A stretch of DNA of 64,000 nucleotides from Candidatus Nanosyncoccus sp. (GTDB taxonomy: Bacteria > Patescibacteriota > Saccharimonadia > Saccharimonadales > Saccharimonadaceae), in contig JAZRRH010000013.1 of NCBI GenBank assembly GCA_045650525.1, positions 43,881 through 107,880 of the forward strand, written 5' to 3'. The notes beneath the pieces were generated by a model, which had not been told where the DNA came from, ran no database searches, and was given only the letters and a program-made list of their open reading frames with translations. A program made the translations under genes and the position numbers. Of this stretch, positions 21,007 through 23,525 are shown piece by piece. Positions within the stretch are counted from its first letter, which is position 1; the number at the start of each line of letters is the position of its first letter.

Positions 21007-22572
<1,566 letters not shown>

Positions 22573-22588
22573 TTATAAAATAAAATGC

Positions 22589-22617
22589 TTGACAACTAAT
22601 TGGTTATGCTTTATGCT
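22589..22617 (+). promoter_or_regulatory. Sigma70-type promoter with no ORF directly downstream
   Basis: TTGACA-17 nt-TATGCT. Confidence 0.7.
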
Positions 22618-22623
22618 TGTATT

Positions 22624-22768
22624 AAGCTGATACGCTTCACAGGGGTTCCACTGACTTTAGTGGAGTGTGGAGACTCATTAAAAACAAAAACAGCGGATTA
22701 AAACAAACCAATGTGCCCCAGGGTGGGCGCGTAGCAGCGGGGAAAGCGGCCGAAAGGTCGCTTTTTTT
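22624..22768 (+). ncRNA. Candidate orphan small RNA (about 145 nt)
   Basis: Own promoter; 5'/3' pairing GCTGATACGC/GCGTAGCAGC; internal hairpins; terminator AGCGGCC-GAAA-GGTCGCT plus T7. Confidence 0.55.
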
Positions 22769-22804
22769 GCGGCCGCATGGTATAATTCTCGGTAAAGGAG
22801 GCTC

Positions 22805-23002
22805 ATGGACCAAGAAAAAATAATCGATCAGTTAGAGGATGCGGTACTAGACAGGCTACCGGCTGACGCTGTAAAAAAACTAGCAGATTTAACCGACTTA
22901 GAAGGTGATCGCACGAAAGAGGCTCAGGCAATATTAGACGAGCATGGCGTCGACGTCGAGGCTGTCGCCAAGGATTATTTCAAGGAGGAAAACAATGACT
23001 AA
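22805..23002 (+). CDS. Small acidic hypothetical protein
   Basis: 65 aa, AAGGAG SD, overlaps the next start. Confidence 0.7.
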   Translation: MDQEKIIDQLEDAVLDRLPADAVKKLADLTDLEGDRTKEAQAILDEHGVDVEAVAKDYFKEENND

Positions 23003-23525
23003 CCCCAATAGATCAGGATTTACAAGCCACGAAGGTGATGGGCCAATCAAACATATCGGCATCAATAATAGCAATATCAACCACGATCAAGAGCTTCTTG
23101 ACCTGGAGGCTATCGAAAAGGATATAAAGGACCACAGAGAGCGAAACCAAGAGCTCGGCAAGATGAGCAATGAAGTTATTGCAAACAAAAACAAAGCCAA
23201 GCGTGGACCACTGAAGACAATTGTCAAAGGCGTAGCGGCCACTCTTATCACTATTGGGGTCATTGCTGGTATTGGAAGCCTCGAGAAAAACTCGCTCGAA
23301 GAACAGAAAAAGGCCGAAGAAGAAATGCATAATAAGAATCTTGCGGATTCGCCTATGCATTTTAATATTGGGGCTGATTCAAGCACGCTCATCGGGTCAA
23401 ATGGTAAAGTTTATACCGTAGAGAACAATGGCAGGAGCGAAGAGGAAGTCAAAAACGCACTAATCGGCATGATGGATGACGATATAAAGAATACAGAGGA
23501 GCGCGAGGCTCAATTTGGAGAATAA
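22995..23525 (+). CDS. Hypothetical single-pass membrane protein
   Basis: AGGAGG SD before ATG 22995; TM GVAATLITIGVIAGIG. Confidence 0.7.
   Translation: MTNPNRSGFTSHEGDGPIKHIGINNSNINHDQELLDLEAIEKDIKDHRERNQELGKMSNEVIANKNKAKRGPLKTIVKGVAATLITIGVIAGIGSLEKNSLEEQKKAEEEMHNKNLADSPMHFNIGADSSTLIGSNGKVYTVENNGRSEEEVKNALIGMMDDDIKNTEEREAQFGE

Follow-up and report, generated by a model that had tools for sequence, protein, structure and literature searches.

A single-copy structured RNA gene of Candidatus Nanosyncoccus with homologues across the order Saccharimonadales

The stretch of DNA studied here (64,000 nucleotides, referred to as the window) belongs to a 741-kb metagenome-assembled genome (MAG) of Candidatus Nanosyncoccus, which consists of 24 contigs and is 96% complete. 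Between obg, encoded on the minus strand (21007-22551), and an open reading frame (ORF) of 65 codons that starts at 22805, the window carries a short RNA gene (22589-22768) with a promoter, a transcribed region and an intrinsic terminator. The nearest relatives of the Obg protein are encoded in MAGs named Candidatus Nanosyncoccus or Candidatus Saccharibacteria, whose named sources are ruminant gut. With the integration of promoter, fold, conservation and synteny analyses, we conclude with high confidence that this is a real, independent and conserved gene for a structured RNA, which represents the Nanosyncoccus version of a single-copy RNA family distributed across the order Saccharimonadales.

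The first-pass annotation of this DNA had read a promoter, TTGACA and TATGCT separated by 17 nt, followed by about 145 nt free of ORFs, and both the sequence and a promoter scan agree with this reading, as the transcript holds only short, unconserved ORFs. The promoter reached a score of 10 out of 12 in the scan of the window, and the TTGAC of its -35 hexamer is shared by all 29 genus homologues whose alignment extends to this position, and by 40 of the 49 representative loci used for comparisons at the order level. Further, a strict -35/-10 pattern fits 31 of the order-level loci, and 15 of these have TATGCT itself, with the box ending 5-9 nt before the start of the conserved RNA. These features show a near-consensus sigma-70 promoter with a predicted transcription start at about 22624, where the sequence AAGCUG marks the beginning of conservation in every homologue. 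Regarding the 3' end, the GAAA-loop terminator and the separate promoter and Shine-Dalgarno (SD) sequence of the next gene, also noticed in the first reading, are present in the sequence, the former having been overlooked by a simple terminator scan. Every homologue in the genus carries a hairpin and a T-run at the terminator site, with a sequence that is different in each genome, and a hairpin with a T-run is found within 70 nt at 40 of the 49 order-level loci. In the genus alignment, the promoter hexamers are conserved around a variable spacer and the RNA body is conserved, while the sequence past the terminator is unrelated; indels whose length is not a multiple of three are located in loops.

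Fold prediction gave a minimum free energy of -53.2 kcal/mol, as compared with -37.6 +/- 3.6 kcal/mol for 200 shuffled sequences (z = -4.3), none of which folded as well. The 5' and 3' ends pair with each other, GCUGAUACGC (22626-22635) with GCGUAGCAGC (22729-22738), in a closing helix (P1), and a second helix, GGGG/CCCC (P2), lies within it. Both pairings had been proposed from the letters of the sequence, and both were recovered by the fold and by compensatory changes in relatives, which also affect the first of two enclosed hairpins (Table 1). This hairpin, UCCACU/AGUGGA, is kept by relatives despite the variable length and sequence of its loop, with one A-U to G-C compensatory change; it is missing from the homologues of about 80 nt found in other families. 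The second hairpin, GAGU/ACUC, had to be abandoned, given that its ACUC strand reads ACUU, ACUA, CCUU, AUUU, ACAA or ACGA elsewhere. The A/C-rich tract described as unpaired is indeed present. Specific to Nanosyncoccus are the pairing of the UUCAC 5' strand with GUGGG, and an extra hairpin together with GUGUGGAGAC on the 5' side of the apical region. Covariation within the genus supports the model, with 96.6% of cells paired and four pairs changing on both sides, a figure reached by none of 500 shuffles; moreover, the G-U pairs, the promoter and the terminator show that the strand folding into P1 and P2 is the transcribed one. An H-type pseudoknot joining CCACCC at the loop end with GGGUGG was set aside, as its connecting loop would span 0-1 nt and an extension of P2 by GUG/CAC explains the same conservation.

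Table 1. Coordinates of the RNA gene and associated features (window positions, except for the loci of the RNA recognition motif protein)
Feature	Position	Strand	Basis
-35 hexamer, TTGACA	22589-22594	+	Promoter scan; conservation in relatives
-10 hexamer, TATGCT, after a 17-nt spacer	22612-22617	+	Promoter scan; conservation
Predicted primary transcript, about 145 nt	22624-22768	+	Start inferred from promoter geometry, end from terminator T-run
P1 5' strand, GCUG-A-UACGC-UUCAC	22626-22640	+	Pairs with 22723-22738; compensatory changes in genus
P2 5' strand, GGGG	22642-22645	+	Pairs with CCCC 22716-22719
Hairpin UCCACU (22647-22652) / AGUGGA (22659-22664), variable loop	22647-22664	+	Full strength in Nanosyncoccus
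A/C-rich, mostly unpaired apical region, closed by a short CAUU/AAUG stem	22676-22715	+	Fold; alignment
P2 3' strand, CCCC	22716-22719	+	Covariation
GGGUGGGC strand, between P2 and P1 on the 3' side; best conserved part of the family	22721-22728	+	Order-level conservation
P1 3' strand, GUGGG-C-GCGUA-G-CAGC	22723-22738	+	Fold prediction; covariation
Intrinsic terminator: GC-rich stem, GAAA loop, seven T	22743-22768	+	Sequence; fold prediction
Start of next gene (not part of the RNA): separate promoter TGGTATAAT 22778-22786, SD AAAGGAGG 22794-22801, ATG 22805	22778-22807	+	Sequence
Genes of the RNA recognition motif protein beside RNA homologues	L159:925-1269, L161:1040-1345, L163:758-1060, L167:922-1200, L176:972-1271, L165:1734-2060

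A BLASTN search returned the stretch in 33 of the 36 genomes of the genus, with one copy in each and with stronger conservation in the core (22622-22739) than in the flanks. From the genus sequences we built a covariance model (R1), which retrieved weak and shorter homologues in other families of the order, and was rebuilt twice (R2 and R3). The R2 model matched 65 of 151 genomes of the order, exactly once in each, and R3 matched all 24 genomes of the family, as well as 16 of 21 genomes from other families of the order. Outside the order, R3 gave a match in one of 105 genomes from other orders of the class and no real homologue, as this weak hit (G207) falls inside what reads as a coding region and was considered a false positive. 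In a sample of the phylum, all six relatives from the order were matched, and none of the 144 genomes from outside it, which represent other classes of Patescibacteria.

Comparison of the 49 representatives revealed a common core with a median length of 84 nt (about 75-95 nt overall). Homologues in other families have their own TTGACA promoter, often with TATGCT as -10 box, and their own terminator. The shared plan starts with P1, typically UCGUGCGC/GCGCACGA, followed by a one-sided element whose 3' strand reads GG(G)UGGGY at 49 of 49 loci (GGGUGGGC in the window). The 5' strand facing it is variable in both length and sequence, with 14-16 of the 49 cells unpaired at each position. Next comes P2, typically GCGGCG/CGCCGC, and the structure ends in an A-rich apical loop of 20-35 nt with two semi-conserved AAAYAAA-like boxes; the sequence of this loop drifts and it accepts large insertions. 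Among the representatives, 105 cells change on both sides (33 expected from shuffles), and 88% of cells are paired, as opposed to 21-55% for slid partners. An independent MAFFT alignment of the order yielded nine pairs changing on both sides against 3.8 expected; in it, the eight core pairs of P1 are 98% paired and five of them change on both sides. For P2, all four modelled pairs covary at the order level and 98.5% of cells are paired. All these data show that both helices are maintained by compensatory mutations.

The genomic surroundings of the RNA gene are far from constant. Among close relatives within the genus, the gene on its 3' side is trmD in some genomes, obg in others, or something else. 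The RNA lies within 1.5 kb of obg at 63 of 80 loci from MAGs named Nanosyncoccus or Saccharibacteria (L043-L122). At least three arrangements occur, with the RNA downstream of obg or upstream of it in divergent or co-directional orientation, which implies that small inversions or transpositions took place repeatedly around the RNA gene. Outside this family, the gene is located downstream of ligA at 24 of 28 loci and adjoins tRNA-Ala(GGC), with the tRNA in either orientation, and we propose that ligA-RNA-tRNA-Ala is the ancestral synteny in the order. Sister genera within this family show the succession ligA, a small gene, a gene for an RNA recognition motif (RRM) protein on the opposite strand, the RNA and a Mur-ligase-like gene. 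Neither of two further neighbour families that recur is matched in Pfam or represented by a homologue in this genome, and ligA itself is split in this assembly over the ends of contigs C1 and C15. Thus, the RNA gene is shown to shift and invert relative to its neighbours while it keeps its promoter and terminator. Since both signals are kept while the terminator sequence and the neighbours change, the element behaves as an independent RNA gene and not as a leader.

These observations also bear on the view that the gene at 22805, with the trmD operon behind it, has the element as its cis-acting 5' leader or attenuator. The RNA does lie directly upstream of this gene and shares its strand, and its terminator is a feature expected of attenuators. 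Its structure is nevertheless conserved in relatives whose downstream genes differ, it occurs in three arrangements with respect to obg, and elsewhere in the order it follows ligA and lies next to tRNA-Ala in either orientation. In addition, an extended -10 box and an SD of its own precede the next gene, and in many relatives a TGnTATAAT box is found downstream of the terminator, though the gene behind this box differs. The terminator stems differ completely and no conserved complementarity to P1 or antiterminator was seen among them, although no formal search for alternative structures was made. Synteny already contradicts a leader function, which is very hard to credit, and the case that the first reading had named as its own refutation, a mere 5' UTR of the 22805 gene, does not apply. 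As for the genes themselves, the interval 22805-23525 of the window contains two ORFs of 65 and 193 codons, which overlap by 59 nt, have no Pfam match and separate the RNA from trmD; in several relatives trmD follows the RNA directly.

Some other observations were made around the gene. The -10 box has the unusual form TATGCT in many families, and GCTTATGC, in this or the reverse-complement form GCATAAGC, is a repeated motif within the -10 region or immediately ahead of it (22600-22617 in the window; L132, L134, L128, L036 and L139 among the homologues), where it could be an operator. The Obg protein has 514 residues, which is long for its family, and its GTP1_OBG domain match is split in two stretches, which suggests an in-frame insertion.

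Next, we considered whether the RNA belongs to any described family. Rfam 15 gave nothing relevant, either for the whole window at gathering thresholds or for the region at E <= 10; the only hits, a look-alike of CRISPR-DR56 in the A-rich tract (E = 0.26) and some others, were noise. Likewise, no Rfam family was matched by 14 order-level homologues, on which Thr_leader scored 23-27 bits against a cut-off of 55 bits, a similarity caused by the A/C-rich tract and the terminator. Full-text literature searches found no description of such a small RNA from Saccharibacteria. The RNA family is apparently undescribed, and the first reading's suggestion of a new small RNA (sRNA) class is supported by an element that is independent, conserved and structured. 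The locus has the attributes of a stand-alone, trans-encoded structured sRNA gene, namely a conserved promoter and terminator of its own, a covarying structure and no conserved ORF. The transfer-messenger RNA (tmRNA), missed by ARAGORN, and the RNase P RNA are located elsewhere in the genome (C22), and therefore the RNA is no stand-in for either.

Two known families had been put forward at first, both to be sought with their Rfam models. One was a divergent signal recognition particle (SRP) RNA, or 4.5S RNA, on the grounds of an alternative fold, CCCC-AGG-N10-AGCAGC-GGGG, whose spacing we take to be that of helix 8 in E. coli. The string is present in the window, but relatives do not keep it: AGCAGC becomes AUCAGC, AACAGC, UUCAGC or ACCAGC, the distance from CCCC to GGG varies, and the 3' GGGG is not retained. 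Furthermore, the string sits in the closing helix, whereas helix 8 would require the apex of a hairpin, and a GNRA loop is lacking. The region 22500-22850 gave no match to an SRP RNA at E <= 10, nor was one obtained anywhere in the genome with RF00169 or RF01854, models that were positive in 12 of 14 and 7 of 14 reference genomes, respectively. The protein side is missing as well. Neither Ffh nor FtsY was found, since PF02978 and PF00448 had no match in this 96%-complete genome and the DTAGR GTPase motif was present in none of its six frames; among 121 genomes of the class, PF00448 produced only partial, P-loop-level matches of about 18-25 bits and no real SRP54 GTPase domain, and the M domain of Ffh (PF02978) was absent from all 151 genomes of the phylum set. 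That Parcubacteria, like many other bacteria of the candidate phyla radiation (CPR), have lost SRP is already on record (PMC4508563, PMC8080830). The RNA resembles SRP RNA in being a small hairpin of about 80-115 nt with conserved internal-loop nucleotides and a single copy, and the window includes an AGG-N10-AGCAGC string; with no conserved motif, GNRA apex or model match, and with Ffh and FtsY missing from the genome and the sampled lineage, the SRP reading is refuted and its probability negligible.

The other family was 6S RNA (SsrS), which is likewise not supported: RF00013 has no match in the region even at E = 10, nor anywhere in the genome. A related proposal would make the RNA a functional analogue of 6S RNA, which would bind the RNA polymerase holoenzyme, tune transcription and replace a canonical 6S RNA that is undetectable here. 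Both RNAs are stand-alone and single-copy, have a strong promoter and a helix closing the 5' and 3' ends, and are conserved beyond what is typical for base-pairing sRNAs; the RNA studied here plausibly acts, by analogy, through protein binding and not through mRNA pairing. On the other hand, 6S RNA is a rod of about 150-200 nt in which two helical arms flank a large central bubble, whereas the consensus obtained here consists of P1, a one-sided G-rich strand, P2 and one terminal A-rich loop, with half that length or less across the order (about 75-95 nt, the hairpin itself being some 80 nt), no match in sequence or structure, and no evident link to RNA polymerase. We consider a 6S analogue improbable.

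A further alternative is a ligand-sensing or self-folding catalytic RNA, in which, in place of protein binding, a tertiary pocket would be built from GGGUGGGC together with the A-rich strand, for instance by A-minor contacts. An invariant internal strand flanked by covarying helices is the pattern of an aptamer or ribozyme; however, no expression platform is coupled to the downstream gene, the apical region varies widely and no riboswitch or ribozyme family is matched, which makes this reading a long shot.

The question then turns to how an independent RNA of this kind would act. Order-wide conserved, single-copy and strongly promoted RNAs are closer to housekeeping or protein-binding RNAs than to sRNAs of the usual base-pairing type. 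In the family described here, the strong promoter, the single copy per genome, the conservation throughout an order and the contrast between an invariant internal strand and its variable counterpart fit a partner-bound RNA better than a regulator that pairs with mRNAs, and the fact that GG(G)UGGGY is invariant at all 49 loci while the strand opposite varies fits sequence-specific recognition. We infer that the molecule is most likely a protein-bound regulatory or housekeeping RNA. The best explanation, offered tentatively, is an independently transcribed, non-coding structured sRNA that acts as a protein-bound ribonucleoprotein (RNP) or as a protein-titrating RNA, and the protein-binding mechanism as such is proposed with a similar or slightly greater reserve. 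The transcript (about 22624-22768) folds into a long hairpin in which P1 joins the ends, the invariant GGGUGGGC strand occupies the 3' side, and P2 leads to the A-rich apical region, and it would act in trans as a stable, abundant RNA. Its G-rich strand would be where a conserved partner docks, most probably a protein, and the A-rich boxes may provide a second, single-stranded platform. An RNP or protein-titrating RNA of this type would follow the logic of 6S, CsrB or CrcZ without belonging to their families.

Among protein-titrating sRNAs, CsrB and RsmZ present GGA motifs, and CrcZ presents A-rich AAnAAnAA motifs bound by Hfq/Crc. With these, the RNA has in common that it is stand-alone and exposes repeated short single-stranded motifs in a loop, here the two AAAYAAA boxes; it differs from them in having only two boxes, in the absence of CsrA and Hfq from the genome, and in its G-rich internal strand, which has no counterpart there.

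The main competitor to protein binding is a regulatory sRNA that pairs without a chaperone, its A/C-rich region or GGGUGGG contacting an mRNA, the 3' end of a tRNA or an rRNA, and thereby controlling translation or stability. A unit running from promoter to terminator with a long unpaired tract is typical of trans-acting sRNAs, and conservation across the order extends in part to the A-rich boxes. The target scans gave no such signal. Against 1347 predicted translation-initiation regions, the loop performed no better than 10 shuffled loops, with a minimum hybridisation energy of -37.5 and a first percentile of -28.4, as compared with -30.6 to -39.3 and -27.1 to -30.1, respectively, for the shuffles. 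The invariant motif has CCCACCC as its complement, of which the genome contains 48 copies where 43 are expected, and CCCACC is absent from the 16S rRNA of two relatives, one of which has a 3' tail ending in GAUUACCUCCUUUCU that pairs weakly with the motif; the present assembly holds no rRNA genes. The drift of the loop sequence and its large insertions, together with the absence of Hfq and ProQ, further speak against a base-pairing sRNA, which we deem unlikely.

The motif itself was also met elsewhere in this genome, as a 10-nt match at C14:72301, rejected as a relative of the RNA given that it occurs at chance frequency in a long hairpin between two minus-strand genes and is unmatched by the R models. 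This GC-rich hairpin (G000:C14:72240-72330, or L173:940-1030), outside the window, reads GGAUAGAGCCCAGCGG ... CCGCUGGCUCUAUCC, and its minus strand contains GGGUGGGCGCA, which comes close to the invariant motif, though chance alone would give a match of this length; it has no Rfam match.

Regarding possible partners of a protein-bound RNA, a gene for an RRM protein (about 92-114 codons) adjoins the RNA, in divergent orientation, in seven genomes of the same family. This neighbour may be the partner, or may reflect a shared ancestral insertion. A more specific proposal is that the RNA is a subunit or dedicated regulator of an unrecognised RNP specific to Saccharimonadales, with GGGUGGGC as the protein-recognition site, possibly for the small RRM protein encoded beside it in sister genera; we regard this proposal as doubtful. 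Of 121 genomes of the class, 111 have RRM genes, as opposed to none of four from this genus, including this genome; the lead is weak because the seven genomes are related, the genus has no RRM gene and other orders have the protein in the absence of the RNA. This pattern is one of several points that weigh against protein binding in general. The invariant G-rich strand could equally be a base-pairing seed, a tertiary-contact site or a ligand site. Except for ligA and tRNA-Ala, neither of which is an obvious partner, no neighbour is constant across the order. Finally, Hfq (PF17209), CsrA (PF02599), ProQ (PF04352) and Ro/TROVE (PF05731) are unmatched in the genome, which leaves no classic sRNA-binding protein available; the missing Ro protein likewise gives no support to a Y RNA.

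Taken together, the elements newly described here are the order-wide core of about 80 nt, its invariant GGGUGGGC strand, the limits of its distribution, the ligA-RNA-tRNA-Ala synteny, the RRM neighbour and the negative target scans. The genomes of Saccharibacteria and other CPR bacteria are tiny, with hardly any regulatory RNA described from them; an RNA that is strongly promoted and kept in single copy across an order, amid reshuffled surroundings, likely serves something central. If it does belong to an RNP specific to Saccharimonadales, these bacteria, which have lost SRP, would possess a housekeeping RNA of their own lineage that ranks with 6S or SRP RNA. Cultured Saccharibacteria are now genetically manipulable (PMC10633639), and identification of the partner could bring to light a novel RNA-protein machine, or else a global regulator, among organisms devoid of Hfq, CsrA, ProQ and SRP. 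Should the RNA prove to be an ordinary regulatory sRNA, it would still constitute the first well-defined family for the annotation of these genomes.
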